From NCBI GenBank assembly GCA_903893315.1, contig CAITLU010000046.1:32187-96186 (forward strand): a stretch of DNA of 64,000 nt, written 5' to 3'. The notes under the pieces were generated by a model. It was not told the origin of the DNA and did no database searches. It saw nothing but the letters and a program-made list of their open reading frames with translations. This stretch comes from an uncultured bacterium. GTDB taxonomy: Bacteria; Desulfobacterota; Binatia; UBA1149; CAITLU01. Position 1 is the stretch's first letter, and the number at the start of each line of letters is the position of its first letter. Of the stretch, positions 14,432-59,863 are shown piece by piece. The translations under genes were made by a program, and so were the position numbers.

Positions 14432-15382
14432 TCAGATTCCCAATCCGCCGTCGAACAAATCGCTGCGCGGCTGCGCCTGGCTGATGGAACTGCCCGACGG
14501 AACGCCGCGGGTAAGCCAGACGTTGCCGCCTATGCTGGAACCGCGGCCGATCGTGATGCGGCCGAGGATCGTCGCTCCGGCGTAAACCGTGACGTCGTCC
14601 TCGACGATCGGATGACGCAGCCGTCCCTTGATCGGCCGGCCCAGTTCGTCCGTCGGAAAGCTCTTCGCACCCAACGTGACGCCTTGGTAGAGCCGCACGC
14701 GTTCGCCTATCACGCTGGTCTCTCCAATGACCACGCCGGTACCGTGGTCGATGAAGAAACTGCCGCCGATCTGCGCGCCCGGATGGATGTCGATCCCGGT
14801 AGTGCTGTGCGCCAGCTCCGCGATGATGCGTGCGATGAGAGGAACTTCGAGCTTGTACAGTTCGTGTGCAATGCGGTGGTGGATCACCGCGGTGATACCC
14901 GGATAGCAGAACACCGCTTCGTCGGCACTGGTGGCGGCCGGATCTCCTTCGTATGCGGCGCGCGCATCGCTGCCCAGCAGCGCACGCACCGCCGGCAGCC
15001 TTTCGGAAAACTCGCAGGTTATTTCGGTCGCCCGTCGTTCGTAACCGGCAAAGTCACCGTCGCTGGGCGCGCTCGCGAAGAGCAGAGCACGTTGCACCTG
15101 CTCATGGAGCGCGCAAAGAGCGGTGTCCAGACGATGGCCGACGTAGTCGCGGATAGCCTCGGCCGACAGATCCGGCGCACCGAAGTGCGCCGGGAAGAGC
15201 GCTGCGCGAAGTTCGTCGACAACCTCCGCGAGCGCTTCCCGCGACGGGAACACGTGCCGGCCGGACTTCCGCCGCTGATTCGGCAGCAGGTCCGCGTTGG
15301 CGTCGGTAAGGGCGCCGACCAGCGACCTGAGATTCCAGCCTGGATGAGGCGGCTTGTCCGCTGTTGCGGAGGACGGGTTCAC
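14432..15382 (-). CDS. cysE: Serine O-acetyltransferase
   Basis: Motifs [47 protein letters not shown]; overlaps the cysK stop (GTGA). Confidence 0.93.
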
Positions 15383-16356
15383 AGCGCCGACCCCTGCGCG
15401 TCGAAGAGCCCCTCGAAAAGGATCGAACTGAGGTAGCGTTCTCCGGAATCAGGCAGCACGACGACGATCGTCTTGCCGGCGTTCTCCGGCCGCTGTGCCA
15501 ATCTCACCGCCACCGCCACCGCAGCGCCGCTCGAGATACCGGACAGGATGCCTTCCTCGCGCGCCAGCCGCCGGGCGTAAGCAACCGACTCTTCGTTGGT
15601 GACCTGCTCGACCTCATCGACGATGGACAGATCGAGAGCCTGGGGAACAAAGCCCGCGCCGATTCCCTGGATCTTGTGCGGTCCGGGCTGGAGAGGCTCG
15701 CCGGCACGTTTCTGGGTGAGCACCGGACTGGCCGACGGCTCGACCGCGACGGTGAGGATCTTCTTGCCGCGCGTATGCTTTATGTAACGCGACACTCCGG
15801 TGATGGTTCCGCCGGTGCCGACGCCGGAAACGAAAATGTCGACAGCGCCGTCGGTGTCGTCCCAGATCTCAGGCCCGGTCGTACTCTCGTGGACTGCCGG
15901 ATTGGCCGGATTGGAGAACTGCTGCAGCAGCACGTAACGCGCAGGGTCGGTGGCGGCGATCGCTTCGGCCTTGGCCACGGCGCCGGTCATGCCGCGGGCG
16001 CCTTCGGTCAGCACCAGTTTCGCACCGAAGGCCACCAGCAACTTGCGCCGCTCGATGCTCATGGTGTCGGGCATCGTCAGCGTCAGAGGGTAACCGCGGG
16101 AGGCGGCGACGAAGGCCAGTGCGATACCTGTGTTGCCGCTCGTCGGCTCCACCAGTTCCTTGCCGGCACCGAGCACGCCGCGGCGCTCGGCATCCCAGAC
16201 CATCGCCGCGCCGATACGGCACTTGACCGAGTATGCGGGATTGCGGCCTTCGACCTTGGCCAGGATCGTCGCAGGTGCGCCGCCGTGAACCTTGTTGAGC
16301 CGTACCAGGGGAGTGTGTCCGATAGAGTGAGCGTTGTCTTCAAACCAGTGCGACAT
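15379..16356 (-). CDS. cysK: Cysteine synthase A (O-acetylserine sulfhydrylase)
   Basis: Motifs [18 protein letters not shown] (PLP Lys), [40 protein letters not shown] before MSHWF. Confidence 0.96.
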
Positions 16357-16431
16357 GATGTCGTCCTCCATTGTTATTTCTGCCGAGAGTGCAGTGCGGA
16401 AAGCGGAGGTGACGCCCGCGAGTCACCAGGT

Positions 16432-16473
16432 AAAAACGAAACGGCCCGGGAAGCGACAACTTCCCGGGCCGTT
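16432..16473 (-). terminator. Intrinsic terminator (attenuator) in the cysK leader
   Basis: Minus strand AACGGCCCGGGAAG-TTGTCG-CTTCCCGGGCCGTT (14-bp perfect stem, 16440-16473) followed by TCGTTTTT; lies between the leader ORF and cysK. Confidence 0.85.
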
Positions 16474-16502
16474 GAGATCGTGACTACGAATTCGAACTGA
16501 CT

Positions 16503-16607
16503 TCAGGAGACGAGTTCGAAGGCCGCACAACCCCGCGCACGGGAAGGCTCCCAGGCCTCGGTACAACAACAACAGGTGCCGTCGGTCGTGTGGCTGACAT
16601 CGTTCAT
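16503..16607 (-). CDS. Putative cysteine-rich leader (attenuator) peptide, 34 aa: MNDVSHTTDGTCCCCTEAWEPSRARGCAAFELVS
   Basis: ATG at 16607, four tandem TGT codons (16563-16574), TGA at 16503; sits between a promoter and the terminator upstream of cysK. Confidence 0.75.
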   Translation of the reverse strand: MNDVSHTTDGTCCCCTEAWEPSRARGCAAFELVS

Positions 16608-16616
16608 CAGTACGCG

Positions 16617-16645
16617 CTTATGAACCGGCGCCCGCCGGCTGTCAA
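16617..16645 (-). promoter_or_regulatory. Sigma70-like promoter of the cys leader/cysK-cysE operon
   Basis: Minus strand TTGACA (16645-16640), 17-nt spacer, CATAAG (16622-16617), then 9 nt to the leader ATG. Confidence 0.65.
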
Positions 16646-16815
16646 TCCCCCGCCGTGAACTTTCCCCGCCGCCACGTCCGGGATCTTCATGCGTGCGGCG
16701 CGGCAATTTCCGCAGGAGTCCGGCACGCGGCGGTCGTATCACCGCCGCTCCCCGTCGCGTGCAGCGCTCACCAACAGACAGCCCCGCAGCCGCGCCGCCT
16801 TCCGATCGAGCCCCG

Positions 16816-17790
16816 TCAGCCAACCATCGGGAAGATGTCCCGCCGGAATATCTCGGCCTGCGAGTCGCCGGCGCCGAACGAGGCGATGTCGTGAAAGTAG
16901 AATACGAGACCGTCGACTCCCATCTTCTTCCACTCATAGAGGAACTCGGCGCAGCGCTCGCGCGTTCCGTGACACGACACGAAGTTGAGCAGTTTCTCGG
17001 CGCTTAAACCCTGCGGCGCAATCCTTTGGAAAAAGCGCTCGTGCTCAACCGCGGAATTGAAAGCGATGCCGCCCGATACCGCCGTGATCTTGATCTCCTC
17101 GAAGTCGCGCCCCACCGCCAGGCAATGCTCCTTGAGGACATTACGGTAGCGAGGAAATTCTTCCTGCGACCCGTTGTAGTTCCACACGTCCGCGTACTTC
17201 GCGACCAGACGCAGCATCACCTTTTCGCCGCGCCCACCGATCCAGATCGGAGGACGCGGCCTCTGCAGCGGGCGCGGCCGACACACGGCGTCGTCGAGGC
17301 GAAAGTGCTTGCCCTCGTACGACACCGCATCTTCGTCGCTCCAGAGACGCTGCACGATCTCGAGGGTTTCACCAAGGCGTGCAAGACGCACTCCGATCGG
17401 AGGCATCGGATAACCGTAGGCGTTGAATTCCTCTTCGAACCAGCCGGCGCCGATGCCGAAATTCAAGCGGCCGCCGCTCATCACGTCGACGCTGGCAGCG
17501 ATCTTGGCCAGGTAGCTCGGGTGGCGGTATTCGTTACAGGTGACGAGCTGGCCGATGCGCGCCCTCTCGGTAATCGCCGCCATGTTGGCCATCATCGTCC
17601 ATGCCTCGAACGTGGCCTCGACCATCTTGCGCGGATACGTATGAAAGTGGTCGTACACCCACAGCGATTCCCACCCCGCTTCGTCGAGGCCGCGAATCAC
17701 GCGCTGACAGGTCTTCCACTTCTCGGCATCGCCGTCGATGCCGGACAGATCCAGTCGCCACCCCTGAGGAACCAGGACTCCGTATTCCAT
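16816..17790 (-). CDS. LLM-class (probably F420-dependent) oxidoreductase
   Basis: Motifs MEYGVLVPQGW, LWVYDHFH, GQLVTCNEYRHP, DVMSGGRL, GIGAGW, PPIWIGG. Confidence 0.88.
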   Translation of the reverse strand: MEYGVLVPQGWRLDLSGIDGDAEKWKTCQRVIRGLDEAGWESLWVYDHFHTYPRKMVEATFEAWTMMANMAAITERARIGQLVTCNEYRHPSYLAKIAASVDVMSGGRLNFGIGAGWFEEEFNAYGYPMPPIGVRLARLGETLEIVQRLWSDEDAVSYEGKHFRLDDAVCRPRPLQRPRPPIWIGGRGEKVMLRLVAKYADVWNYNGSQEEFPRYRNVLKEHCLAVGRDFEEIKITAVSGGIAFNSAVEHERFFQRIAPQGLSAEKLLNFVSCHGTRERCAEFLYEWKKMGVDGLVFYFHDIASFGAGDSQAEIFRRDIFPMVG

Positions 17791-18050
17791 CGCGATCACC
17801 CCTTGCGTTCGCACGCCGGACCACAGCACCGAAGCACGGCGCTGCCTGCCCCGACACCGCCGCGCCAACCTTGGCGCCTCTCCATGCCGGTGCTCGGCAT
17901 AAGCCACCCTCGATGAGACAACAAGTTCACGGCAGCGCGGCGGCATGTGCGCGGCGCCCTCCCTGTCGGCGCCGCGCCGCGCGGCACGCCGGTGACACCC
18001 GCCTGCTTGCGCTTCTTGCCCCTCTGCGCTCCCGGGAGTACAGAACGCGC

Positions 18051-18611
18051 ATGCTCGGTGAAATTCGTATCGTGCCAGGACTGCTGATCGCGATGCCACA
18101 GCTTCGCGATCCCAATTTCCACCGCTCGGTAGTGCTGATGGTAGAGCACCAGGAGCAGGGCGCCTTCGGCCTCGTCATCAACAAGCCCACCCGCGTTCCG
18201 GTCAGCGAACTGCTCAGCGCGATCGACGTCGACTGGCGGGGTTCATCCACCGAAGTGGCGTGGGCCGGCGGACCGGTACAGCCGGAAACCGGCTGGATCC
18301 TGCACGAGCCGGTCGAGGGCCTGAGCGGCGAAGGTACGCACGAAATCATGCCTGGCCTGTTCATGTCGTCGGCGCCCGACGCGCTGCGCGTGCTGGCGGC
18401 CGGGCCTCCCAAGCGCGTGCGCTTCGTGCTCGGCTATTCGGGATGGGGACCGTCCCAGCTCGAGCGCGAGCTTACCGAAACCGCGTGGGTCAACAGCGAC
18501 CTCAATGCCGATTTTCTTTTCGACACGCCGCCCGAAGAAATGTGGGAAGCCGCGCTGGCCCGCATCGGCGTTTCGCCGACAACGCTCGCGCCGGCGCCCG
18601 GTATCCACTGA
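18051..18611 (+). CDS. YqgE/AlgH family protein
   Basis: Motifs [46 protein letters not shown]. Confidence 0.92.
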
Positions 18612-20815: not shown

Positions 20816-21541
20816 TCAAAGAAGTTCGCGCGCCAGCAGCGCCACGCTCGACGCAGCCGACACCACCAACACCGCGGTGCGCGTACGGCCGGTATCGAGA
20901 AACCGCGCAGCGGAATGCGAAAGCGCGAAGCCCGACACGGCCCCACACATCAGCACCAACGAAGCCGCAGCATCCGACGCGGCCACTCGTCCGGCTACAG
21001 CCAACGCCACCAACGAGATCAGCCCCCCGACCACGAAGTTGACGGCAAGCACCGCCCTCAACGCGCGGCCCGGCAGGCTCTGGTAGACCAGAGCCAGTGG
21101 AGGGCCGCCGATCGACGAAGTCGTGTTCATGAAACCCGACATGACACCGGCCGTCACCAACGAGCGCCGGTTCATCGGAGGTTGCAGTCCCGACACGCTC
21201 ATCGTCACGGCGATCAGCACCAACGACCCGAGCAGGATATTGACGTCGTGAATCGGCAGCACCACGAGCGCGGCCGCGCCGGCTGCGCTGCCCGGCACAC
21301 GTCCGCAAAGAGTCCAGCCGATGCCCGCAGCCTCCAGGCCGTCGCGATCCCGCCACAGCACGAACACGCTCAGCGCAACGCCGGCGGCGATCAGCGGACC
21401 GGGAACCAGACGCGGATCGAGCAGGGCCAGAAGCGGAGCCGCGATCAATCCGGAACCGAAACCTACCGCCCCCTGCAAGACGCAGCCGACGACAACGACC
21501 AGGCAGGCAGCGGCCAGCACTGCGCCGGTAACCGGCTCCAT
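20816..21541 (-). CDS. TauE/SafE family (sulfite exporter-like) membrane protein
   Basis: Motifs QGAVGFGSGLIAAP and SGFMNTTSSIGGPP; multiple hydrophobic helices. Confidence 0.85.
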   Translation of the reverse strand: MEPVTGAVLAAACLVVVVGCVLQGAVGFGSGLIAAPLLALLDPRLVPGPLIAAGVALSVFVLWRDRDGLEAAGIGWTLCGRVPGSAAGAAALVVLPIHDVNILLGSLVLIAVTMSVSGLQPPMNRRSLVTAGVMSGFMNTTSSIGGPPLALVYQSLPGRALRAVLAVNFVVGGLISLVALAVAGRVAASDAAASLVLMCGAVSGFALSHSAARFLDTGRTRTAVLVVSAASSVALLARELL

Positions 21542-29725: not shown

Positions 29726-30529
29726 TCACCCACGGCCGCGGTAGGTCCCCGGCGCCAAACCGCTCCACTGCTTGAAGCGTTTCGCGAAATGGTACTCGTC
29801 GGGAAAACCCACCTGCGCGGCCACAAGCGCCAGCGGCTCTCGCGTCGTGCACAGCAGATCTGCGGCGGCACTCATCTTGAGGTTCATCGCGTAGTTCATC
29901 GGTGAAACGCCGACGTTCTTCTTGAACAGGCGGATGAAGTAGGACTTTTCGAGTCCGAGTCGAGTTGCCAGATCGTCGAGCGTGTACGCCTCGCCGATCT
30001 GCGAGCGCATGTATTCGAGCGCCTTCTCGATCGCCGGGTGCCCGTGATGCGAGGTCTGGCTACCGGCCATCAACTCGTAGAGCAGCGCCACGAACCTGAA
30101 AGCCGCGGCGCGACTCTGGTACGCATCGCCGGCCTCTGACAGCCGACTGAGCTGGGCAAAGAAGCCGTGAAGCCGGTCCCCGGCCCGGTGAGGTACGCCC
30201 TCGGGCAGCCGCGCCATCAGATCGTCGGCAACCTGAACGTCGAGCGCGGTGTCAAGCACCAGGAAAACGACGTACTGCAACAGATAGTCCCCGTCCGACG
30301 GCACCACGGCTCGGTGCTCGGTCCGGGGCCGCGTGTAGAAGAAGTCACCGGCCCGAATCGGCCGCCACTTGCCGCCGACCTCGAAGGAACCGCTGCCGCC
30401 CACCACGTGGTGGAACTCGTAGGCGTCGTGGGTGTGGCGCTCGAAGGCACGCACCCCTTTCGGCAGCAGGCAGCAGCCAAGAAGCACCATGATGTCAATA
30501 TCGTACATCGAACGGTCAGCGTGGACCAT
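29726..30529 (-). CDS. AraC family transcriptional regulator (cupin sensor plus HTH)
   Basis: HTHDAYEFH cupin motif; YFIRLFKKNVGVSP and VGFPDEYHFAKRFKQWSGLAP; divergent from the glycyl radical enzyme gene. Confidence 0.92.
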   Translation of the reverse strand: MVHADRSMYDIDIMVLLGCCLLPKGVRAFERHTHDAYEFHHVVGGSGSFEVGGKWRPIRAGDFFYTRPRTEHRAVVPSDGDYLLQYVVFLVLDTALDVQVADDLMARLPEGVPHRAGDRLHGFFAQLSRLSEAGDAYQSRAAAFRFVALLYELMAGSQTSHHGHPAIEKALEYMRSQIGEAYTLDDLATRLGLEKSYFIRLFKKNVGVSPMNYAMNLKMSAAADLLCTTREPLALVAAQVGFPDEYHFAKRFKQWSGLAPGTYRGRG

Positions 30530-30590
30530 TGCCGCCGGCGACTTGTCGGGAGTAGTTTGCCGCGATCAGGACCTGTAAGGAGTCGAAACC

Positions 30591-33107
30591 ATGTTGCGGA
30601 CCTTGGACCAGAATCCGGAATCGTTGGTCGTGCCCTTTCCCGGCATCGTGCTGTCACCCCAGGAGGCGCGCATCGAGCGCGGAGAACCGGTCGGACTGAT
30701 CGGCGACGCGGCGCGCTCCAAACGAGCCCGGATCCACAGCATGATAGAGGGCTTTCGCGAACGGCCCATCCGCCTGAACGTCGAGAGGGCTCGCCTGTTG
30801 ACGGAGTCGATGCGGCAGACCGAAGGCCAACCGACGGTGCTGCGCTGGGGCAAGGCACTCGCCCACATCCTCGAGCACCACCCCATCCACATCGAAGATG
30901 ACGAACTGCTGGTCGGAAGCGCCGGCCCGAGCGGTCGCTACGCGGTGGTCTATTGCGAGAACGCAGGCTACGGGCGCTTCTACACGCGCGACAACGAACT
31001 CACCGTGAGCCGTCCCGGCGATCCTATCATCATCACTGAAGCCGACATCGCCGTTCTGAAGAACGAGGTCCTGCCGTACTGGGACAACCACCAGTACAAC
31101 GCTGCGCTGATGAAAGCGCTCCCCGCCGACACCAAGCGGTTGATGGAGAAGATCTTCATCGTCACCTCCACCGCCGCGGCCCGCTCCATGCTGGCCTGGG
31201 CCCACGACTACGGGAAAGTCCTCAACCGCGGAATCGGCTCGATCAAGCGCGAGGCCGAAACCAAACTCGACGCGATCAATCCCCTCGACACCCAGGCCTG
31301 CGTAGAAGACAAGCCATTTCTCGAAGCCGTCATTTTGGTCTGCGACGCGATGGTGACTTTCGCACACCGCCACGCCGCGCTGGCGCGTACGATGGCGGCC
31401 GCAGAACCACGCGCGGAGAGAAGAGAAGAACTGCTGGAGATCGCACGGGTCTGCGATCGAGTGCCCGAGCACCCGGCCACGACGTTGCGCGAAGCGACGC
31501 AGTCGCAGTGGTTCGTGCAGATCGTCTCGCGCCTGGAACAGTCGATAGGCGGCGTGGTCGGCAACGGGCGCATCGATCAATACCTCTACCCCTACTACAA
31601 GAAAGACCTCGAAGCGGGACGGATCTCGGACGACGACGCACTGGTACTTCTCGAATCGATCTGGGTCGGCATGGCAAGGACGGTGGACCTCTACGCCAAG
31701 CCCGGAGAACCATCACTCACCGACGGGTTCGCACACTGGGAGGCGACCACGATCGGCGGCGTAAGCCGTGACGGCAGGGACGCCACCAACGAACTGTCCT
31801 ACCTGATCCTTCAATCCAAGCGCGAGTTCCCGCTGCACTACCCCGACCTGTCGGCGCGCATACACTCGCGCACGCCCGACGCATTCCTTCACGCCATCGC
31901 CGAGACGATCAAGGAGGGAACCGGGTTTCCCAAGCTCTTCTTCGACGACGAAATCATCCCGTCGCTGCTGGCCAAGGGCGCCGAAGTCGCCGAAGCCAAC
32001 GATTACTGCGTCACCGGCTGCACCGAAGTCAAGATGCTCAATCGCGACGTCGTCGCCACCGGATGTGCGTGGGTCAACCTCGGAGCCATCCTCGAGATGA
32101 CGCTCAACAGCGGCAGGCTGAAGTTCTACTCCGACGACCGCATCGGCGTGGTTACCGGCGACGCCAGTGGCTTCGCAACGTTCGACGAACTGTGGACCGC
32201 CTTCAGCGCGCAGGCCGAAAACGTCATGCGCCACACGTTCATCCAGCAGTTCGTCGCCGACAAGCTCAAGTCCAGCTTCATCGCCTCGCCCATGTTTTCG
32301 ATGCTGCACGACCTGTGCACGGCCGACTGCAAGGACATCCACGCCGGCCCGATCAAGAACGGACTTTACCTCGGTTTTTTCGACATCATCGGCTTCGGCA
32401 CCGTCATCGATTCGCTCGCGGCCATCAAGAAGCTGGTGTTCGACGACCGCACACTGACCATGGACGAGCTGCTCACGGCGCTGGACGCTGACTTCGCTGG
32501 ACACGAAGCTGTCCGTCAGATGTGTCTGAACGCTCCCAAGTACGGCAACAACGACCCCTACGCTGACAACATCGGCCGCGACATCGAGGAAACTTTCGCG
32601 CTGCTCGCTCACAGCCAGACGTCGGCTTTCGGCGGCGAGCTGGACCTGCGTTACGTATCGGTGACATCGCACGTCCCTCTGGGAATGATTGTGGCTGCGA
32701 CGCCGGACGGACGCAGGTCCGGCGAGCCGCTGTCCGAAAGCGTGAGCCCGTCACAGGGCGCCGACGTCCACGGCCCGACCGCCACTCTCGCCTCCATCGC
32801 CAGCACCAAGTGCGCGCAGTACAAGGAACGCGCCGCACGGTTGCTGAACATGAAACTGTCCCCGGCATCGGTGGCCGGAGAGATCGGCACCAAAAAAGTG
32901 ATGGCGCTGATCCGCAGCGTCTGCGACATGAAGATGTGGCATCTGCAGTTCAGCATCATCAACCGTGAGACACTGCTGGCCGCACAGGCGAATCCCGAAA
33001 AGTACCGCAACCTGCTCGTGCGTGTTGCGGGGTACAGTGCCTACTTCGTGGATCTCACTCCTGCACTCCAGAACGAGATCATTCGCCGTACCGAGCACAC
33101 CGCCTGA
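30591..33107 (+). CDS. Glycyl radical enzyme, isethionate/DHPS sulfite-lyase (IslA/HpsG)-related clade
   Basis: Gly loop RVAGYSAYF, Cys loop TGCTE, and blocks AHWEA, SKREFPLHYPDL, TSHVP, ERAARLLN matching IslA as recalled; TAAGGAG RBS. Confidence 0.9.
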   Translation: MLRTLDQNPESLVVPFPGIVLSPQEARIERGEPVGLIGDAARSKRARIHSMIEGFRERPIRLNVERARLLTESMRQTEGQPTVLRWGKALAHILEHHPIHIEDDELLVGSAGPSGRYAVVYCENAGYGRFYTRDNELTVSRPGDPIIITEADIAVLKNEVLPYWDNHQYNAALMKALPADTKRLMEKIFIVTSTAAARSMLAWAHDYGKVLNRGIGSIKREAETKLDAINPLDTQACVEDKPFLEAVILVCDAMVTFAHRHAALARTMAAAEPRAERREELLEIARVCDRVPEHPATTLREATQSQWFVQIVSRLEQSIGGVVGNGRIDQYLYPYYKKDLEAGRISDDDALVLLESIWVGMARTVDLYAKPGEPSLTDGFAHWEATTIGGVSRDGRDATNELSYLILQSKREFPLHYPDLSARIHSRTPDAFLHAIAETIKEGTGFPKLFFDDEIIPSLLAKGAEVAEANDYCVTGCTEVKMLNRDVVATGCAWVNLGAILEMTLNSGRLKFYSDDRIGVVTGDASGFATFDELWTAFSAQAENVMRHTFIQQFVADKLKSSFIASPMFSMLHDLCTADCKDIHAGPIKNGLYLGFFDIIGFGTVIDSLAAIKKLVFDDRTLTMDELLTALDADFAGHEAVRQMCLNAPKYGNNDPYADNIGRDIEETFALLAHSQTSAFGGELDLRYVSVTSHVPLGMIVAATPDGRRSGEPLSESVSPSQGADVHGPTATLASIASTKCAQYKERAARLLNMKLSPASVAGEIGTKKVMALIRSVCDMKMWHLQFSIINRETLLAAQANPEKYRNLLVRVAGYSAYFVDLTPALQNEIIRRTEHTA

Positions 33108-33142
33108 TCCTGCCGGCGAGGGATTCACACTTTGCAGCCGCC

Positions 33143-34081
33143 ATGATCGCCGACGCAGCATCCGGAAACGGCACGCGAGGCTGGATTTTCAACATCCAGA
33201 AGTTCTCGCTGCACGACGGCGCGGGAATCCGCACCGTCGTCTTCCTGAAGGGATGTCCGCTCGCGTGCCGGTGGTGTTCAAATCCTGAGAGCCAGGCTTA
33301 TCGGCCCGAACTCCTCTACGCTCGTGACCGGTGCATAGGAGAGCACGAGTGCGACCGCTGCATTCGGGTGTGCAAGGCCGCGGCTATCGGTCGCGACGCC
33401 GACGGCAAGGCCGCGATCGACCGCAGTCTCTGCAACAACTGCGGCGACTGCGCCGGCGCGTGTCCATCCAAGGCCCTCGAAGTTTCCGGAACCCTGGTAA
33501 GCGTCGACGAAGTGATCCGCGCGGTCGAGCAGGACAGCGGTTTCTACGTCAGGTCGGGCGGCGGTTTGACGCTGAGCGGCGGCGAACCGCTCGCCCAGGA
33601 TAGTTTCGCCGAGCGCTTACTGGCCACAGCGCGAAGACGCGGACTCGACACCGCGATCGAGACTTCGGGTTTTTGCAGGTGGGAAGCCTTGCAGCGGGTC
33701 GCACCTCTGGTCGATCAGCTCTTCTACGACATCAAGTGCCTGGACACCGAGAAACACCGGGTCGCGACCGGAGTGTCCAACGAAATCGTCCTGGACAATT
33801 TTCAAAAGCTGCGCAGGGATTTTCCCGCGACCGTGGTCGTCGTCCGAACACCGATAATTCCCGGCCTCAACGACTCGCGTGAAGACATCCAAGCCATCGC
33901 CCGCTTCATCGACTCAGCCGGCGGAGCAACAGCTCATGAATTGCTCGCGTACCACGGATTCGGTGAACCGAAATACCAGCGGCTCGGTAGAACCTACCCG
34001 CTCGGCTGCGTGGAAACGGCGTCGGACGAATCCATGGCAGTGCTTAGAAAGGCCGCCGCGTGCGGCGGCGACCGGCGTTGA
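33143..34081 (+). CDS. Glycyl-radical activating enzyme (radical SAM with ferredoxin-like insert)
   Basis: Motifs FNIQKFSLHDGAGIRT, GCPLACRWCSNPES, extra CxxCxxCxxxCP cluster, SGGEP. Confidence 0.95.
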   Translation: MIADAASGNGTRGWIFNIQKFSLHDGAGIRTVVFLKGCPLACRWCSNPESQAYRPELLYARDRCIGEHECDRCIRVCKAAAIGRDADGKAAIDRSLCNNCGDCAGACPSKALEVSGTLVSVDEVIRAVEQDSGFYVRSGGGLTLSGGEPLAQDSFAERLLATARRRGLDTAIETSGFCRWEALQRVAPLVDQLFYDIKCLDTEKHRVATGVSNEIVLDNFQKLRRDFPATVVVVRTPIIPGLNDSREDIQAIARFIDSAGGATAHELLAYHGFGEPKYQRLGRTYPLGCVETASDESMAVLRKAAACGGDRR

Positions 34082-40136: not shown

Positions 40137-42020
40137 ATGATCAAGGGTTATGCGGGGCGAATCCTGGAAGTGGACCTGAAGAGCCGGACGTTCGCGTTCA
40201 AGCCGTTGGATGAGGAGATCGCCAGGCTCTACATCGGCGGCAAAGGCTACGGCACGCGCCTGCTCTACGACATGACCGACGCCGGCATCGATCCTCTCGG
40301 CCCGGACAATCCGCTCATCTTCGCAACCGGACCTCTCAACGGCAGCGTGGCGCCGCAGTCGAACCGCTTCGCGGTGGTATGCAAGAGCCCGCTCACCGGC
40401 GGAATCGGCAACGCGACCTGCGGAGGATCCTACGCCTACGGGATGAAGAAGGCCGGGATCGACATCCTCATCTGCAAGAACAAGTCGGAGACACCGGTGA
40501 GGCTGGAGATCGACGGCGACAAGAGCGAGGTCACGTTCCTCGACGCCGGCGACTTGTGGGGCAAGGGAACCTACGAGACCCAGGAAATACTCGGCAAGAA
40601 GAAGTACCACGCAGTGATCGGCCCCGCCGGCGAGAACATGGTGTTGTTCGCCGGCATAGTCTCCGACGAGCGCATCGCAGGCCGCACCGGCGTCGGCGCC
40701 GTCATGGGCTCGAAGAAGCTCAAAGCCGTCAGCGTCAGCGGTTCGCGCAAGCTGGAGATGGACGACCCCGAGGCGTTCAAGGAATACACGAAGACGATCC
40801 GCACGCTGTTCCGCGACCATCCGGTGCTCGGTCACAGCATGGAGGCCTTCGGCACCGCAGGCATCGTCAAGACCACCAACGCCCGCAACATCATCCCCAC
40901 CCACAATTTCAAGTACGGACATTTCGACAAGGGCATGTCCCTGACCGGCGAGTACATGGCCGACAACACGCTGGTCGGCACCAAGAGCAGTTGCATCCAC
41001 TGCCCTGTCACCTGCGGACGTCAGGTGAATATCGAAGGCATCGGTACCGTGAAGGGGCCGGAATACGAGACGCTCGGGTTGATGGGCACCAACCTGGAAA
41101 TCTCCGACATCACCAAAGTCCAGGAGTGGAACTACGCTGCCGATGACATGGGGATGGACACGATCAGTCTCGGCGCGGTTCTCGGATTCACGATGGAACT
41201 GCAGGAGCGCGGCATGCTGCAGTCTGGGCTCACCTTCGGCGATGCCGCCGGAGTGCCCGAAATAATCCGTGACATCGCCCACCGCCACGGTCTCGGCAAC
41301 GATCTGGCCGACGGCGTCAAACGCATGAGCGCCAAATACGGCGGCCACGAATTCGCGATGCACGTCAAAGGTCTGGAACTGTCGGCCTACGATCCACGCG
41401 GGTCTTTCGCGCAGGGCGTCGAGTACGCAACCACGAACCGCGGGGGCTGCCACGTCCAGGGCGGAAGCATGTACATGGAGAGCGTCGGGCCGTTCACCAT
41501 CAACCCGCAGAATCTCAAACTGAAAGCCGACATCCCTATCGTTCAGCAGAACCTGGCCTGTACCATCAACTCGATGGTCTTGTGCATCTTCACCACCTAC
41601 GGCATCGTCCCGAAGTTCGTCCACGAGATGGACCCGAAATCGTGGCAGTACCGTCTGGCGGTCGCCGCGTTCGAGAACAGCGGTCCGATGTTCCGGATCC
41701 TGCAGAGCATCAAGGGCAGACCCATGCTGTGGTGGGAGAAGTGGATGACTTTCATCACCGGCACCACCATTTCTTCGGGGCACCTGCAGGAAATCGGCGG
41801 CCGCATCTTCAACCTGGAGCGCATGTACAATCTGCGCGAGGGCTTGACCGGGAGGGACGACACGTTGCCTCCGCGAATGCTCCACGAGCCCATCTTCAAA
41901 CACATGTCGAGCGGCCACCCGCTCGACAAACTCCTGCCTCGTTACTACGAACTTCGCGGATGGGACGCCGGTGGAGTACCGACACGCAAGACTCTCGACA
42001 AACTGCATGTCGCGCTCTGA
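40137..42020 (+). CDS. aor: Tungsten-containing aldehyde:ferredoxin oxidoreductase
   Basis: Motifs YIGGKG, KSPLTG, IGPAGEN, GRTGVGAVMGSKKLKA, CIHCPVTC, GPEYET, DDMGMDTIS, AYDPRG, RGGCH, YYELRGWD. Confidence 0.93.
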   Translation: MIKGYAGRILEVDLKSRTFAFKPLDEEIARLYIGGKGYGTRLLYDMTDAGIDPLGPDNPLIFATGPLNGSVAPQSNRFAVVCKSPLTGGIGNATCGGSYAYGMKKAGIDILICKNKSETPVRLEIDGDKSEVTFLDAGDLWGKGTYETQEILGKKKYHAVIGPAGENMVLFAGIVSDERIAGRTGVGAVMGSKKLKAVSVSGSRKLEMDDPEAFKEYTKTIRTLFRDHPVLGHSMEAFGTAGIVKTTNARNIIPTHNFKYGHFDKGMSLTGEYMADNTLVGTKSSCIHCPVTCGRQVNIEGIGTVKGPEYETLGLMGTNLEISDITKVQEWNYAADDMGMDTISLGAVLGFTMELQERGMLQSGLTFGDAAGVPEIIRDIAHRHGLGNDLADGVKRMSAKYGGHEFAMHVKGLELSAYDPRGSFAQGVEYATTNRGGCHVQGGSMYMESVGPFTINPQNLKLKADIPIVQQNLACTINSMVLCIFTTYGIVPKFVHEMDPKSWQYRLAVAAFENSGPMFRILQSIKGRPMLWWEKWMTFITGTTISSGHLQEIGGRIFNLERMYNLREGLTGRDDTLPPRMLHEPIFKHMSSGHPLDKLLPRYYELRGWDAGGVPTRKTLDKLHVAL

Positions 42021-42050
42021 CGCAGGAGCCGTGCAAAGGAGGTTCGTCAG

Positions 42051-42311
42051 ATGCGCGTAAGTGTAGAACCCACGTATGAAATGACGAAGTTGTTGAAGAT
42101 TGACCGTTTCGAGGTCGAGATCGCCGACGCCGCTACGGTCGCCGACGTCGTCGACAAGACCAAGATCAAGGTGGGACCCGAATTCGACAGGCTGGTGCGC
42201 CTGGCCGCCGTCGCCGTCAACGGCGTACTCGTCAACTACCGGCAGGGGATGAAGACCAGATTGGCCGACGGCGACGCGATCCGATTCGTCAAGGCCTCCG
42301 CCGGCGGCTGA
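42051..42311 (+). CDS. MoaD/ThiS family sulfur carrier
   Basis: 86 aa with AVNG and C-terminal GG; GGAGG RBS; directly after aor. Confidence 0.88.
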   Translation: MRVSVEPTYEMTKLLKIDRFEVEIADAATVADVVDKTKIKVGPEFDRLVRLAAVAVNGVLVNYRQGMKTRLADGDAIRFVKASAGG

Positions 42312-42984
42312 CCGCGGGGCCTGTCCGTCAGCCGGTTGTCTAGGGCCCGAGGAGTACGGGAATTCGCCGATTCAGCGCTCGAGGATCCCGCATGGGAACG
42401 CCTGGCTACCCGCACTGAGGATCGCTTCAGCCGATGTCAGAGGCCAGGTCGTCGTGGCCTCGGGTTCGACACCTGCCTGGCAGAGTACATCCTGAGGATG
42501 GAGTACTTTTCGGCGCATGCATTACGACGTGATCGTCTTCAATGGTCCGGGGCAGGTCGAGGTTCCGATCACCCACGCGGTGAGCGTGACCCATCATTGG
42601 AAAGAGCCGGTCGGCGTCTCGCTCGGCGGCTGCCTCGCCATGCTGGCGGCTGCGTTTGATACGCGCATCCAGCGCGTCGGGACTCGCGCTGCTTGCGAGC
42701 GTGCTTCGTAACAGAGGCACGGCCGCAGCGTGATTGCCTCTCGCGCCGCCCAGTCTTGCCGCTCGTCGCCGGTCCGTGCCGGCGGTTAACTTCGGGAGCC
42801 GTTTCCAGTACGGTCGCCGCTCGTCTCATTGCGCGCCAAGCCCCTGGGCAGTCGCCGCGGATCCTCACCCGAAGCCTGCAGATCGAGTCGGCTCCAAGTC
42901 CCGGCTTCGGGCCGGACGGTTGCCGAGGCCCGGCGCCGGGGCAGACCGGAAACGAGCCGATTCACAGTCGACAGGAGTCTCGTC

Positions 42985-45561
42985 ATGCTGGAAGCATATC
43001 GGAAACACGTTGAAGAACGCGCCGCCATCGGCGTCGTTCCCCTTCCCCTGGACGCCTCGCAGGTTGCCGAGCTCGTCAAGCTGCTCCAAGCGCCTCCCGC
43101 TGGTGAAGAGGCCTTCCTGCTCGAGTTGCTCAGCGACCGAGTTCCGGCTGGCGTGGACACCGCCGCTCAGGTGAAGGCCGAGTTTCTGGCCCGGGTCGCC
43201 GGCGGCCAGACGAGTTCTCACCTGCTCTCAAAGAAGCGGGCGGTCGAACTGCTGGGCACGATGCTGGGCGGTTACAACGTCGCGCCGTTGGTGCGGCTTC
43301 TAGACGACTCCGAGCTGGGCGAGACTGCCGCCAAGCAACTCTCCCAGACCTTGCTCGTCGCCGATACTTTCGACGAGGTACTGGCGAAGTCGAAAGCGGG
43401 AAACGCCAACGCCAAGCGGGTCGTGGACTCCTGGGCGGAAGCGCAGTGGTTCACCAGCCGCAGGGCGCTGCCGCAGAAGCTCACGGTGACCATTTTCAAG
43501 GTCGTGGGCGAAACCAACACGGACGATCTCTCGCCGGCTCCCGACGCCTGGTCGCGCCCCGACATCCCGCTGCACGCCCAGGCGATGCTGAAGATTCCTC
43601 GCGAGGGAATCGAAAACACGCTCGAGCAGATCCGCGAGCTCGGTAAGAAAGGGTATCCCATGGCCTACGTCGGTGACGTCGTCGGTACGGGGTCTTCCCG
43701 CAAGTCGGCCACCAACTCGGTGCTGTGGCACTTCGGCGACGACATCCCACACATCCCCAACAAGCGCGGCGGCGGCGTGTGCATCGGCGGAAAGATCGCG
43801 CCGATCTTCTTCAACACGATGGAAGACTCAGGTGCTCTGCCTTTCGAGTGCGACGTCACGGCCATGCGCATGGGCGACGTGATCGACATCTACCCCTACG
43901 AAGGCGTAGCCAAGCGCCACGACACCGGTGAACTCATCGCCAAGTTCACGCTGAAGACCGACGTGCTCCTCGACGAGGTTCAGGCCGGCGGACGCATTCC
44001 GCTCATCGTCGGCCGCAACCTCACCGACAGGACTCGGCAGGCACTGGGCCTCGCCCCATCCACTGTATTCCGACGGCCGGTGACGCCGCCTGACAGCGGC
44101 AAGGGGTTCTCGCTCGCGCAGAAGGTCGTCGGCCGCGCCTGCGGCACGGCCGGGGTTCGTCCCGGCGCCTACTGCGAACCGCGCATCTCCACCGTGGGAT
44201 CGCAGGACACCACCGGCCCGATGACGCGCGACGAGCTCAAGGAACTGGCTTGTCTCGGCTTCTCTGCCGACTTGGTGATGCAGAGCTTCTGTCACACGGC
44301 GGCCTATCCCAAGCCGGTGGACGTGGCCACGCACGAGACGCTGCCCGGGTTCATCATGGAACGCGGCGGCGTGGCGCTGCGTCCGGGCGACGGGATCATT
44401 CACTCCTGGCTCAACCGCATGCTGCTTCCGGATCAAGTCGGCACCGGCGGAGACTCCCACACACGATTCCCGATCGGCATATCCTTTCCCGCCGGCTCGG
44501 GACTGGTGGCGTTCGCTGCGGCGCTCGGAATGATGCCGCTGGACATGCCCGAGTCGGTGCTGGTGCGCTTCAAAGGGAAATTGCAGCCCGGCATCACCTT
44601 GCGAGATCTCGTCAACGCGATCCCGCTGGCCGCCATTCGCTCCGGTGACCTGACGGTGGCGAAGGAGGGCAAGAAGAACATTTTCTCCGGACGCATCCTC
44701 GAGATCGAAGGGTTGCCCGATCTCACCGTCGAGCAGGCCTTCGAACTTTCCGACGCCTCGGCGGAGCGTTCCGCCGCCGGTTGCTCGATCCGCCTCGGCA
44801 AAGAATCGGTGAAGGAGTACCTCCGCTCCAACATCGTCATGCTGCGCTGGATGATCTCAGAGGGCTACGGTGACGCCCGTACGCTGGAGCGCCGAGCGCG
44901 AGCGATGGAAGACTGGATCGCCGACCCGCAGCTGCTCGAGCCGGACGCCGATGCCGAGTACGCCAAGGTGTTCGAGATCGACCTTGCCGAGGTGACCGAG
45001 CCGATCCTTGCCTGTCCGAACGATCCGGACGACGTGAAGGTGCTCTCCGACGTGGCCGGTGTGAAGATCGACGAAGTCTTCATCGGATCCTGCATGACCA
45101 ACATCGGACACTTCCGTGCTGCCGCTCGGCTGCTTGAGAAAGCGAAGGGACAGATCCCGACGCGCCTGTGGATGTCGCCGCCGACCAAGATGGACCAGGA
45201 ACAGCTCGTCAGAGAAGGGCTTTACAGCATCTACGGAAAGGCCGGCGCACGCATGGAGATGCCGGGGTGCTCGCTGTGCATGGGCAACCAGGCGCGCGTG
45301 GCGTCCGGTATCACGGCGGTGTCGACGTCGACCCGCAATTTCCCCAACCGCCTCGGCGACGGCGCCAAAGTGTATCTGTCCTCGGCGGAACTGGCGGCGA
45401 TCATCGCCATTGAAGGAAAGATTCCGACCGTAGCGGAATACATGAAGTACTCCGCCGAGCTCGACAAGATCGCTGCCGACGTCTACCGCTATCTCGCCTT
45501 CGATCGCAGCGAACGGTACGTCGCGGCCGCGGCCAAGGCGAAGTCGGCGGCAGCCGCGTAG
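42985..45561 (+). CDS. acnB: Aconitate hydratase B
   Basis: Motifs [58 protein letters not shown]. Confidence 0.97.
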
Positions 45562-45563
45562 CG

Positions 45564-45594
45564 GCCCGCCCGCCGGTGAAACGAGCGGGCGGGC
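45564..45594 (+). terminator. GC-rich hairpin after acnB (possible terminator, weak U-tract)
   Basis: 10-bp stem gcccgcccgc / gcgggcgggc immediately after the stop. Confidence 0.4.
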
Positions 45595-45714
45595 TCGTTC
45601 TCGTCCGCGTCTTTTGTTCGGCAGTGTTTCGGGGTGGCCGCTCGCCGTCGCCGCCGCGAGTCGGCGGCGCTGTTTTTTGCCGGTCAGCACGCAGCGTGCT
45701 AGATGCTCCACCCT

Positions 45715-46551
45715 ATGGTTGCATATCTTCTCCGTCTTGCCGTCGCGGCGTTCGTCATCCTCGGAACCGTCCCATCTACTTCGAGCGCGCAGACGCACTT
45801 GCGTCTGGGGACCACGACCAGCACGCAGGACTCCGGCCTCCTCGAATACCTGCTCCCCGGCTTCGAACACGAATGCGGATGCCGCGTGGACGTGATCGCC
45901 GTGGGGACCGGCGAAGCCCTGCGCCTGGGTGCCAACGGCGACGTCGACGTGGTGCTGGTACACGACCCGGACAAGGAAGAAGCGTTCATGCGCGATGGCC
46001 ACGGCCTGACGCGAAGCCCGGTAATGTCGAACGACTTCGTCATCGCCGGCCCCCACTCCGATCCGGCGGGAGTGCGCACGGCGCAGGGATTGGAAGCGGC
46101 GCTGCGCGCGATTGCGGACAAGTCGGCGCCTTTCGTCAGCCGCGGCGACGAATCCGGAACCCACGCCAAGGAACGCAAACTCTGGGCCGCAGCCGGCATC
46201 AAGCCGCAAGGATCCTGGTATCGCGAGTCGGGACAGGGAATGGGAGCCACGCTTCAAATGGCCGGCCAGATGCAAGGCTACGTCTTGAGCGACCGTGGCA
46301 CCTTCCTGGCAATGCGTGAGCGCGTGGAACTGGAAATCCTCCTGCAAGGAGATCCGCGGCTGCTCAACCCGTACAGCGTGATGCCGGTGCGCGTGGAGAA
46401 GGGAGCCTCCGCCCAGCGCGAGTTGGCCGAGTCGTTCGTCGCCTGGTTGCTGAGCGCGCCGGTCCAGAAGCGCATCGGCGAATACGTCAAGGACGGGCAG
46501 GCGCTCTTCAAACCGAATGCGCCAGCCACGCCGCCGCCCAAGACCCCGTGA
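45715..46551 (+). CDS. tupA: Tungstate ABC transporter substrate-binding protein
   Basis: Signal peptide; TTTS signature (GTTTSTQDSGLL), FVSRGDESGTH, GQGMGATL, LSDRGT. Confidence 0.92.
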   Translation: MVAYLLRLAVAAFVILGTVPSTSSAQTHLRLGTTTSTQDSGLLEYLLPGFEHECGCRVDVIAVGTGEALRLGANGDVDVVLVHDPDKEEAFMRDGHGLTRSPVMSNDFVIAGPHSDPAGVRTAQGLEAALRAIADKSAPFVSRGDESGTHAKERKLWAAAGIKPQGSWYRESGQGMGATLQMAGQMQGYVLSDRGTFLAMRERVELEILLQGDPRLLNPYSVMPVRVEKGASAQRELAESFVAWLLSAPVQKRIGEYVKDGQALFKPNAPATPPPKTP

Positions 46552-47204
46552 ATCAGTTCTTCGGAGTCGAAACACTCGCGATCTGCGTCACGAGCCTGAA
46601 GACCTCGTCGGTAGCGATTGTCGCAGCCTCACTGCTGGGAGTCCCGGTCGCGCTGTGGGCCTCCAATAACTATTTTGCCGGCCGCGGCGCGTTGGTGACG
46701 GTCTTCAACACCTTGACGGCCCTGCCCTCGGTTTTCGTCGGCGTGCTGCTGTACTCGCTGCTCTCGCGTTCGGGTCCGCTCGGATCCCTGGAACTTCTGT
46801 ACACGTGGCCGGCGATGAGCATGGGGCAGACCTTGCTCGCTCTCCCGCTGATAGTGTCGCTCACGCTCGCGGCCCTGAGCCGCACCGACCCGCGCCTGCG
46901 CAAGGAACTCATCGCGCTGGGCATACCCGCGTGGCGCACCGGTTGGATCCTGGTCAAGGAAGCGCGCTTCGGCGTACTCGCCGCAGTGGTCGCGGCATTC
47001 GGACGCGTTTTCACCGAGGTCGGCTCTGCGTTGATGCTGGGTGGTAACATCCGTCACTCCACTCGCACCATCACCACCTCGATTGCGATGGAGACTTCGA
47101 AAGGAAACTTCGAATTCGGCCTGGGCCTCGGCTTTCTGCTGCTTGCGGTCGCACTCGCCATCAACATCGGATTCCACAGCCTGCAGGAGACCCGCGCGCG
47201 GTGA
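46548..47204 (+). CDS. tupB: Tungstate ABC transporter permease
   Basis: Motifs LSRSGPLG, FGRVFTEVG, GGNIR, TTSIAMETSKG. Confidence 0.92.
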   Translation: MNQFFGVETLAICVTSLKTSSVAIVAASLLGVPVALWASNNYFAGRGALVTVFNTLTALPSVFVGVLLYSLLSRSGPLGSLELLYTWPAMSMGQTLLALPLIVSLTLAALSRTDPRLRKELIALGIPAWRTGWILVKEARFGVLAAVVAAFGRVFTEVGSALMLGGNIRHSTRTITTSIAMETSKGNFEFGLGLGFLLLAVALAINIGFHSLQETRAR

Positions 47205-47905
47205 TCTACCGCGCACAAAGGCTGCTCCACAGGTACAACGGCCGCGTGGCGCTCCAGGTGCACGACCTCGCGATTCCTCAGGGAAGTCGCTTCGCGGTCG
47301 TAGGTCCCAACGGCTGCGGCAAGACCACGCTGATGGAGATTCTCGTCGGCCTGCTGGCACCGAGTGAAGGGGAATTGTTCTTCTACGATCGCCCGCTGCA
47401 TTTACCTCTCGACAAGGATCAGCGAAGCCGGGTGGCCTACGTGGCACAGCAACCGTTCGCACTCCCAGGCTCGGTGATCGACAACGTCGTGCTGGCTCTC
47501 GGCCGCGGCCGCTCGCGTGCGCAGAACCGGCGAATCGCGTTCGGCTGGTTGGAACTGCTGGGCATCGAAGCGCTGGCCGACAGGTCGGAGCGCACACTCA
47601 GCGTCGGGCAGTTGCGGCTTGCGACCCTGGCCCGGGCCGCGGCCCGCGACGCACCGCTGCTGGTTCTTGACGAACCGTTCGCGTTCGTCGACGAGACTTT
47701 CGAAGCGATCGTGCAGCGCGTGCTCGAGCGTCACCACAGTGCGGGCGGCACCATCGTCATGACCAACCCGAGGCGCAGCGCACTGGCGAACTGGGCGACC
47801 GAAGTCCTCGAACTCGGGGCGGCAGCTCCGGCCAACTCACCGCAAGCGCCGGCCGAACAGATTCCCGATCGCGCAGTTGCTCCAATGTCGCAACCGTCCC
47901 GGTGA
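47201..47905 (+). CDS. tupC: ABC transporter ATP-binding subunit of the tungstate transporter
   Basis: Walker A GPNGCGKTT, LSVGQ, Walker B LVLDEP; translationally coupled to tupB. Confidence 0.85.
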   Translation: MIYRAQRLLHRYNGRVALQVHDLAIPQGSRFAVVGPNGCGKTTLMEILVGLLAPSEGELFFYDRPLHLPLDKDQRSRVAYVAQQPFALPGSVIDNVVLALGRGRSRAQNRRIAFGWLELLGIEALADRSERTLSVGQLRLATLARAAARDAPLLVLDEPFAFVDETFEAIVQRVLERHHSAGGTIVMTNPRRSALANWATEVLELGAAAPANSPQAPAEQIPDRAVAPMSQPSR

Positions 47906-59767: not shown

Positions 59768-59863
59768 CGCGGTGTTCCTCCGGGCGTAGATTTCAGGAGG
59801 GCGGACGCTACGCCCGCGGTGGCGACGCGTCAAGGTCAGCGCAGCCGTGACCGCGCTGCGCCG

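Follow-up and report, generated by a model that had tools for sequence, protein, structure and literature searches.

Which reaction is catalyzed by a glycyl radical enzyme (GRE) which retains the radical machinery of the sulfonate carbon-sulfur (C-S) lyases IslA, IseG and HpsG, and has replaced the glutamine with which all three of them bind the sulfonate? This question is raised by a locus at positions 29726-34081 of the 64,000-nucleotide stretch of DNA analyzed here (the window), which comes from an uncultured member of the Binatia and in which we found three intact genes, coding for a divergent cupin-AraC regulator, an 838-aa GRE and a radical S-adenosylmethionine (SAM) activase. The specificity of this GRE very probably differs from that of IslA, IseG and HpsG: the enzyme would be a functional 1,2-eliminase whose substrate is neither isethionate nor (S)-2,3-dihydroxypropane-1-sulfonate (DHPS). 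The reading that we favor, with a probability of roughly 45%, is that of a C-S lyase that would release sulfite from another organosulfonate. The locus is organized as follows:

29726..30529, minus strand: AraC/XylS-family regulator of 267 aa, transcribed divergently from the GRE gene, with a cupin ligand domain at its N terminus
30530..30590, no strand: divergent intergenic region of 61 bp containing the GRE ribosome-binding site, from sequence reading
30591..33107, plus strand: GRE of 838 aa in the Ala202 ('xLAW') clade, which is the sister group of the sulfonate C-S lyases, from Pfam, PDB matches and tree
33143..34081, plus strand: GRE-activating radical-SAM enzyme, 312 aa, from NCBIfam and Pfam

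The GRE carries both domains of its superfamily (PFL-like PF02901, 583.2 bits, and Gly_radical PF01228, 98.7 bits), and its best matches among solved structures are IseG (5YMR, 887.4 bits), HpsG (6LON, 869.1) and IslA (7KQ3, 838.4), with E-values down to 8.9e-266, the next being CutC (525.9). Alignment to these structures and to homologues places the functional residues at the following positions:

31182..31199, plus strand: beta-1 motif RSMLAW (R198-W203), with R198 of the anion clamp kept and A202 (31194-31196) replacing the sulfonate-binding Gln
31539..31553, plus strand: QSIGG (Q317-G321), with I319 replacing IslA T310, and G321 replacing IslA T312 / IseG T310
31737..31739, plus strand: W383, the IslA-family Trp, from the alignment to PDB structures and found in 120/120 homologue clusters
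32016..32027, plus strand: Cys loop GCTE (G476-E479), with the thiyl-radical C477 and the general base E479, the CxE motif of 1,2-eliminases
32649..32663, plus strand: beta-8 motif RYVSV (R687-V691), with R687, the second Arg of the anion clamp, and V689 (IslA V680) kept, and V691 replacing Phe682
33021..33041, plus strand: glycyl radical loop RVAGYSA (G814), from the sequence and the homologue alignment

With respect to IslA, the window GRE retains R189 (as R198), W374 (W383), C468 (C477), E470 (E479), R678 (R687), V680 (V689) and G805 (G814), and has altered I192 to L201, Q193 to A202, T310 to I319, T312 to G321, P681 to S690 and F682 to V691. At the level of motifs, frSSIQw of IseG and IslA becomes aRSMLAw, eQKTGT becomes eQSIGG, RYVPF becomes RYVSV, and yFEYMg (IseG) or yFEFMg (IslA) becomes fFDIIg, while AHWEA is unchanged. 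A preliminary description of the locus, made from the sequence alone, had proposed the same four motif swaps and a conserved AHWEA block, and the alignment bears it out, with the precision that IslA itself reads FEFMG and that FEYMG belongs to IseG; the coordinates that it had given for RSMLAW, for RYVSV and for the intact Gly and Cys loops (33021-33041 and 32016-32027) are all reproduced by residue-to-base arithmetic. The single catalytic Cys in a CxE motif with a Glu base (C477/E479) is that of a 1,2-eliminase, and of the features that characterize sulfonate lyases the GRE has the two clamping Arg and the Trp that takes the place of the customary active-site Phe, and lacks the sulfonate-bonding Gln, replaced by A202.

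This replacement is not a peculiarity of one sequence. A homologue search of 5.8 billion proteins gave 2442 matches at E<=1e-100 among 7998 scored candidates, and conservation was read from an alignment of the best 120 homologue clusters (at 90% identity), which are 65-87% identical to the window GRE and all derive from uncultured bacteria. We found R198, L201, A202, W203, Q317, G320, G321, H382, W383, E384, C477 and E479 in all 120, along with K481, D598, R687, Y688 and a V or I at 691; V689 is present in 119 and G814 in 118, the remaining two rows having one gap and one C. Position 200 is less constrained (Met in 79/120, otherwise Ser, Cys, Leu or Ala). Both Arg and the Trp are kept, and the Gln, Phe, Thr and Tyr replaced, as had been proposed, and the conservation of the IslA or HpsG pocket residues that would have spoken against a remodeled pocket is not seen on proper alignment.

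Ala202 occurs in 50/50 sequences of the clade defined below, versus Gln in 14/14 sequences of the IslA type and of two intermediate clades, and IslA, IseG and HpsG all carry Gln at this position and Thr or Ala at that of the clade's Gly. Other clade-specific changes are R to S110, R to K481, S to T490, R to K560 and N to D706, and a polar DTYTS stretch past the Cys loop, kept in the IslA-type and intermediate clades, is lost in the Ala202 clade (DVVAT in the window GRE). Judging from these alignments, there is a clear loss of hydrogen-bonding or polar groups near the putative anion site of the clade. Some side chains have shrunk (Q to A, T to G, F to V) and others have become larger (S191 to M200, T310 to I319); a new specificity, as anticipated in the preliminary description, is therefore supported, but not its suggestion of a bulkier substrate, which is not established. 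Because Ala is fixed at the Gln site while the catalytic residues and both Arg are invariant, the pattern of conservation indicates that the Ala202 clade is under selection for a defined and different substrate fit.

Published work on the characterized enzymes gives weight to these positions. In IslA, Q193A had no detectable activity and still formed the glycyl radical, F682A had a kcat, normalised to the radical, of 0.154 per second instead of 9.5 (a loss of about 60-fold), and R189E, R678E, E470Q and V680A were inactive, while Trp374 is described in the same source as peculiar to the IslA family among GRE eliminases (PMC8473560). IseG is reported to hold the sulfonate by two Arg, a Gln and a water molecule, with Phe, Ile and Thr in van der Waals contact, the Thr being T310 (PMC6453916); set against the alignment, three of the six substrate contacts listed there are altered in the window GRE. 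In a review of June 2026, only IslA, IseG and HpsG are listed as C-S lyases, each with two Arg and a Gln, the sulfonate-bonding residue being Q193, Q191 and Q187, respectively (PMC13450708). An ordinary isethionate or (S)-DHPS lyase is thus unlikely, given Ala for Gln in all clusters and the inactivity of IslA Q193A.

To place the GRE among its relatives, we used a scan of one genome per prokaryote species, which gave 465 relatives, of which the best 80 loci were kept. A GRE frame of at least 780 aa was present in 63 of these 80 loci, which entered a FastTree analysis (supports SH-like, i.e. Shimodaira-Hasegawa-like) together with the window and 9 distant representatives, while 17 were left out (short contigs or antisense frame chosen). 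The window GRE lies in a monophyletic clade of 50 rows (support 100). The IslA-type clade (6 rows, support 99) is distinct from it, as are two Gln-keeping intermediate clades that branch between these two. With the other members of its clade the window GRE shares 59-77% identity, with the intermediate clades 53-59% and with the IslA type 51-53%, so that it falls outside the IseG similarity cluster, reported to be defined by an edge above about 60% identity (PMC6453916), as judged without rebuilding the published network. HpsG is absent from the tree and was placed by PDB bit scores only: the IslA-type sequence L077 scores 1430 bits to IseG, 1329 to IslA and 1234 to HpsG, which, compared with the scores of the window GRE, indicates that the three characterized lyases group together and that the Ala202 clade is more distant.

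The NCBIfam model NF048011, an HpsG-type 'equivalog' named (2S)-3-sulfopropanediol dehydratase, is passed by the window GRE (1128.5 bits, cut-off 1000). However, when tested on L005, L010, L021, L034, L035, L057, L058, L063-L067, L070-L075 and L077, it was passed by all, with scores of 1555-1590 for the IslA/IseG type, 1268-1430 for the intermediate clades and 1065-1207 for the Ala202 clade. A pass therefore marks the IslA/HpsG superclade and not HpsG function, since the model does not separate specificities. Names based on it may be without basis for clade proteins in public records, and Ala202-clade proteins may be counted wrongly where metagenomes are surveyed for sulfite or H2S production driven by sulfonates. 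A comparison of the GRE with the ESM Atlas gave generic GRE clusters only, a search of 50%-identity representatives gave diverse outgroups and no named anchors, and full-text literature searches found no publication on the Ala202 clade.

Compared with the isethionate sulfite-lyases IseG of Desulfovibrio vulgaris and IslA of Bilophila wadsworthia, the window GRE has the same fold and length, and shares the Gly loop, the GCxE Cys loop, both Arg, the Val680 equivalent, the Trp and a downstream activase; it differs by Gln193 to Ala, Thr312 to Gly, Thr310 to Ile, Phe682 to Val, FEY/FMG to FDIIG and the loss of the polar stretch past the Cys loop. Their surroundings also differ: IslA-type loci have DctP-type binding proteins (TRAP/DctP at L073, L077 and L080) and sigma-54/PAS activators, whereas the Ala202 clade has AraC or TetR regulators and no TRAP transporter, microcompartment or Dsr context. 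HpsG, the (S)-DHPS sulfolyase of B. wadsworthia, resembles the window GRE in having small residues at both Thr positions of QKTGT and an aliphatic one for Phe682, but keeps the Gln (RSALQW in the alignment; PMC13450708) where the window GRE has Ala, is closer to the IslA type (an IslA-type sequence scores 1234 bits to it, versus 869 for the window GRE) and comes with an hpsKLM-type transporter that the window locus lacks. The intermediate clades, found in Desulfotomaculia (Desulfofundulus, Desulfocucumis, Desulfotruncus) and in Syntrophobacter and relatives, share D598 with the window GRE and likewise carry an aliphatic residue in place of Phe682, but keep the Gln and RYVP and lie in GntR-MFS-SDR-GRE-activase operons (SDR, short-chain dehydrogenase/reductase). 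Their members L062, L063, L065 and L066 (Desulfotomaculia) and L067 and L072 (Syntrophobacter-like) keep Arg-Gln-Arg and show NIGAV/KxGAV, GFYDL and RYVP[VL]; from these motifs, both uncharacterized clades are candidates for yet another sulfonate specificity. Finally, CutC, HypD and the glycerol and propanediol dehydratases have the CxE motif and the direct-elimination logic of the window GRE, but score only 416-526 bits and lack its Arg pair and Trp; in HypD the Arg equivalent to IslA R189 is reported to serve the carboxylate via a water molecule (PMC8473560).

Is the locus able to work on its own? The activase, which starts 35 nt past the GRE stop codon, has the Pfam domains Radical_SAM, Fer4_12 and Fer4_6, a CX3CX2C motif (C38/C42/C45, 33254-33277) and two ferredoxin-like Cys clusters, and scores 345.3 bits on TIGR02494 (cut-off 174.35) and 422.1 on the HpsH-type equivalog NF048010, slightly below the cut-off of 430. 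The GRE thus has beside it the dedicated radical-SAM activase of its superfamily, and from this gene and the intact loop a glycyl radical is predicted to form on G814. The regulator combines a C-terminal double helix-turn-helix (HTH) of AraC type (HTH_18, 67.2 bits; HTH_AraC, 54.4) with an N-terminal cupin/AraC-type ligand domain (Cupin_2, 45.0; AraC_binding, 44.2), as expected of the AraC/XylS family, and passes none of the NCBIfam equivalogs, the top one being AraC (62.3 bits, cut-off 208). Orthologues with 55-62% identity occupy the same divergent position in 24/45 clade loci with an intact upstream flank. The 61-bp intergenic region contains AGGAG 7 nt upstream of the GRE ATG; its length is 56-63 bp in 18/19 aligned AraC-type loci, across which the conserved elements are GAAAGGAG and a TAnGTT-like block. 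A consensus sigma-70 promoter scan of this region gave no match, and promoter and terminator scans did no better than on shuffled sequence. From its conserved adjacency, the regulator may be supposed to sense the GRE substrate. All three open frames have a G+C content at third codon positions (GC3) of 0.74-0.82, similar to other genes of this 65% G+C window, and we consider that the locus is a working and probably substrate-induced module.

Among the 49 other clade loci examined, the activase lies downstream of the GRE in 45 of the 46 with an intact downstream flank, and upstream of the GRE the 45 loci with an intact flank have a divergent AraC (24), a TetR (16) or nothing recognizable (5). 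The conserved unit thus consists of regulator, GRE and activase only, and is autonomous, the remaining neighbors being unrelated housekeeping genes barring sporadic exceptions: L010, L014 and L031 contain an APC permease, with an SDR next to it in L010, L033 has an MFS transporter, L004, L010 and L014 carry RND efflux genes, and L031 also has an aldehyde dehydrogenase with an aldo-keto reductase. A metagenome-assembled genome of Poribacteria (G028) has two Ala202-clade paralogues, L033 and L057, with RSSLAW and RTCLAW forms; the GRE of L033 has no adjoining activase, and an SDR, a PAP2 protein, the MFS transporter and a metallophosphoesterase lie downstream. The clade comprises more than 120 clusters at 90% identity and occurs in 48 other genomes from several phyla, no two of which stand for the same species in the collection that was searched. 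In a sample of 41 genomes of the host class, orthologues occur in three (the host, a second member of its genus and a member of a different genus in its family), a patchy distribution that fits an accessory and horizontally moving module. The window DNA is present in five lake-water metagenome runs, with which no RNA dataset is listed.

The immediate neighbors of the locus are TPR proteins, a trypsin-like protease and an amidohydrolase. Pfam scans of 45 open reading frames along the window found no microcompartment shell protein, dsr gene or sulfonate importer, and no transporter or aldehyde dehydrogenase adjoining the locus, in agreement with the preliminary description; none of the usual company of sulfonate lyases (importer, sulfoacetaldehyde reductase or aminotransferase, Dsr, microcompartment) is present in the window. 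Farther away are:

20816-21541: TauE-family protein, 9 kb upstream of the locus
40137-42020: tungsten-type aldehyde:ferredoxin oxidoreductase, 6 kb downstream of the locus
58298-59833: aldehyde dehydrogenase

The second of these opens a stretch 6-14 kb downstream (40137-47905) that also holds a MoaD/ThiS-like gene, aconitase B and a tungstate/molybdate-type binding-protein/ABC set; the oxidoreductase could accept an aldehyde product of the GRE, and is not conserved near other clade loci. At 14432-18099 and 52448-53479 the window has a hexapeptide-transferase and PALP-enzyme pair (serine acetyltransferase/cysteine synthase-like) and two luciferase-like oxidoreductase genes.

What does the host do with sulfonates? 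Its genome (G000; 3.68 Mb, 67 contigs, 98% complete) contains no DsrA (best match 18 bits) and one siroheme sulfite/nitrite reductase of assimilatory type (774 aa). It also encodes a genuine sulfoacetaldehyde acetyltransferase, Xsc (905.8 bits against a cut-off of 676.4; G000:C13:252382-254106(+)), on a different contig from the GRE and with no recognizable taurine, isethionate or sulfoacetate genes around it. The host therefore already runs a sulfite-releasing enzyme without Dsr, and the absence of dsr genes is no argument against a second one.

A physical link to Xsc was found in three species of one lineage (L040, L042 and L049), where an operon of TetR, GRE, activase, acyl-CoA ligase and hexapeptide transferase lies back-to-back with an operon coding for a thiamine pyrophosphate (TPP) enzyme like HACL, oxalyl-CoA decarboxylase or benzaldehyde lyase, a VOC (glyoxalase/epimerase-fold) protein and Xsc (767-771 bits). 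The conserved Xsc-GRE island, in which an SDR and a Crp/Fnr-type gene precede the Xsc-VOC-TPP operon, occupies:

L042:2904-16159
L049:3413-17196
L040:3832-16923

Parts of the island are shared by L053 and L032, and L058 has the TPP enzyme immediately upstream of the GRE; the TPP enzymes adjoining the GRE in L040, L042, L049, L053 and L058 all belong to the HACL/oxalyl-CoA decarboxylase/benzaldehyde lyase group, to which the host has a relative of only 36-39% identity, elsewhere in the genome. The island resembles a CoA-dependent 2-hydroxyacid or acyloin route supplying sulfoacetaldehyde to Xsc. Two further candidates for sulfonate genes were rejected: a class-III aminotransferase in L042 is no taurine:pyruvate aminotransferase by its best PDB matches, which are glutamate-1-semialdehyde aminomutases, and SDRs in the island and among the neighbors have only generic FabG / 3-hydroxybutyrate dehydrogenase matches, not those of a sulfoacetaldehyde reductase.

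Xsc is above cut-off in 10/48 other clade genomes and, among the host and its 40 relatives, which are kin, in two of the three genomes with a GRE orthologue (host and G050) versus two of the 38 without. We regard this co-occurrence and linkage as a weak hint to sulfonate metabolism, not as proof. No IslA-type paralogue was found in the 48 clade genomes, where an IslA-type query finds its best matches in the GREs of the Ala202 clade (48-54% identity).

Four further PFL-like GREs of 841-993 aa are encoded by the host, each with a Gly loop and with a Cys loop of the GCxE eliminase type:

C27:29896-32841, minus strand (G000)
C52:17295-19820, minus strand (G000)
C18:5511-8492, minus strand (G000)
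C28:67060-69978, plus strand (G000)

None reaches an NCBIfam equivalog cut-off, and three have an N-terminal extension of about 130-190 aa; an activase-like gene adjoins those on C27, C52 and C28, and a radical-SAM gene lies two genes from that on C18. Just upstream of the latter (C18:12-4972) are two HGD-D (2-hydroxyacyl-CoA dehydratase/benzoyl-CoA reductase-type) subunits and two BcrAD/BadFG ATPase genes, which, with the five GREs, point to a strictly anaerobic organism rich in radical enzymes.

The new specificity is thus supported by a fixed clade signature, a monophyletic and separate clade, the IslA Q193A and F682A mutants and a conserved minimal layout. That the enzyme would be a C-S lyase is suggested by its closest solved relatives, which are the three known ones (838-887 bits versus 526 for CutC), by the intact radical machinery and CxE motif, the adjacent activase and the invariance of both Arg and the IslA-specific Trp, and by Xsc in the host, in the islands of three species and in its wider co-occurrence. 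In the mechanism that we propose, the activase would use SAM and its [4Fe-4S] cluster to place a radical on G814, from where it would move to C477; R198 and R687 would hold a small anionic beta-substituted alcohol, from whose carbinol carbon the C477 thiyl radical would then take a hydrogen, E479 would accept the hydroxyl proton as the neighboring substituent departs, and the product radical would regain the hydrogen to give a carbonyl compound. Candidate substrates would be C3 or alkyl-substituted hydroxysulfonates such as (R)-DHPS, sulfolactate or 2-hydroxypropanesulfonate, and a non-sulfidogenic anaerobe would use the enzyme to acquire carbon and sulfur or to ferment. The analysis shows that the genes are intact, that the catalytic motifs are present, that the clade is separate, that its altered pocket is invariant and that the three-gene layout is conserved; enzymatic activity, induction through AraC, an anionic substrate and sulfite release are what we infer here.

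Several observations weigh against a sulfite-releasing enzyme. The Gln used by all three known C-S lyases, and essential in IslA, is missing, so the bound anion may not be a leaving sulfonate, and the clade alignment reveals no new polar or cationic pocket residue in its place. The nearest sister representatives (P0124-P0126) lack one or both Arg, which suggests a divergence away from sulfonate chemistry in this part of the tree. Xsc is absent from 38/48 other clade genomes, including the entire Polyangiales-type core, and its linkage to the GRE is limited to one lineage, the two lying on different contigs in G001, G009, G011, G029 and G039. The TauE protein of the window, considered as a linked sulfite exporter, has no counterpart near the 49 other clade loci (phmmer, tblastn) and was judged coincidental. 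Finally, the assignment of the changed residues to the pocket lining rests on alignment to published structures.

An alternative, which we consider rather unlikely, is an anion-anchored eliminase of different chemistry, where the anion bound by the Arg pair would be a carboxylate, an ester of phosphate or sulfate, or a non-leaving sulfonate, and hydroxyl or amine would be eliminated (C-O or C-N cleavage); examples would be a C3 hydroxysulfonate dehydratase, or an enzyme that cleaves 4-substituted 3-hydroxybutyrates like carnitine or 4-amino-3-hydroxybutyrate (GABOB). Such an enzyme could dispense with the Gln that bonds the leaving sulfonate, Ala in 120/120 clusters, and the apolar turn of residues near the anion site (T to I, T to G, DTYTS lost) and the clade-specific loss of positive or neutral polar ones (R to S110, N to D706) would be in line with it, as would the water-mediated binding of a carboxylate reported for the corresponding Arg of HypD (PMC8473560). 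The sporadic neighbors also include enzymes of aldehydes and ketones (SDRs like 3-hydroxybutyrate dehydrogenase/FabG, and the aldehyde dehydrogenase and aldo-keto reductase of L031), and the APC-family permease of L010, L014 and L031. However, we identified neither an acid catalyst for the loss of hydroxyl nor a cation-pi or acidic cage for an amine, the IslA-type Trp and both Arg are strictly kept, among pathway genes Xsc alone shows physical linkage in several species, and the case for C-O or C-N cleavage is inferential throughout.

It seems distinctly improbable that the enzyme is an ordinary sulfite-lyase of isethionate or (S)-DHPS in which other residues bind the sulfonate. Both Arg, the Trp, V689 and CxE are kept, Xsc in the host and in the islands of one lineage attests to C2-sulfonate metabolism, and the absence of an IslA-type GRE from all 48 other clade genomes would fit a functional replacement; yet a taxonomic split explains this last result without replacement, and the pass of the window GRE on NF048011 (1128.5 bits against 1000) is non-discriminating. 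Moreover, IslA Q193A is dead and F682A about 60-fold slower (PMC8473560), three of the six contacts listed for IseG are changed, the identity of 51-53% is below the edge of about 60% given for the IseG cluster (PMC6453916), and no TRAP/DctP transporter like that of the IslA-type L073, L077 and L080 is present. As for a decaying or silent remnant without function, which we find hardly credible, the lack of RNA data and the patchy orthologue (3/41 genomes) might suggest it, but the three frames are open with a GC3 typical of the genome, the catalytic residues are invariant over 120 clusters from several phyla and gene order is conserved.

We tentatively suggest, as possible rather than probable, that the Ala202 clade runs an undescribed GRE reaction, which would be either the radical desulfonation of an abundant environmental sulfonate whose anaerobic breakdown is not known to take a radical route (such as (R)-DHPS, sulfolactate or alkyl hydroxysulfonates) or an anion-anchored C-O/C-N elimination. 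If this is true, a self-contained and horizontally mobile three-gene route into such a compound would be open to non-sulfidogenic anaerobes (Myxococcota-like lineages, Binatota, Poribacteria, Abyssobacteria and Desulfobacterota) that live in soils, sediments, groundwater and lakes. As a large sister clade whose machinery and Arg clamp are intact and whose essential Gln is uniformly replaced, the Ala202 clade is well suited to experiments on a new GRE specificity and on the role of this Gln.

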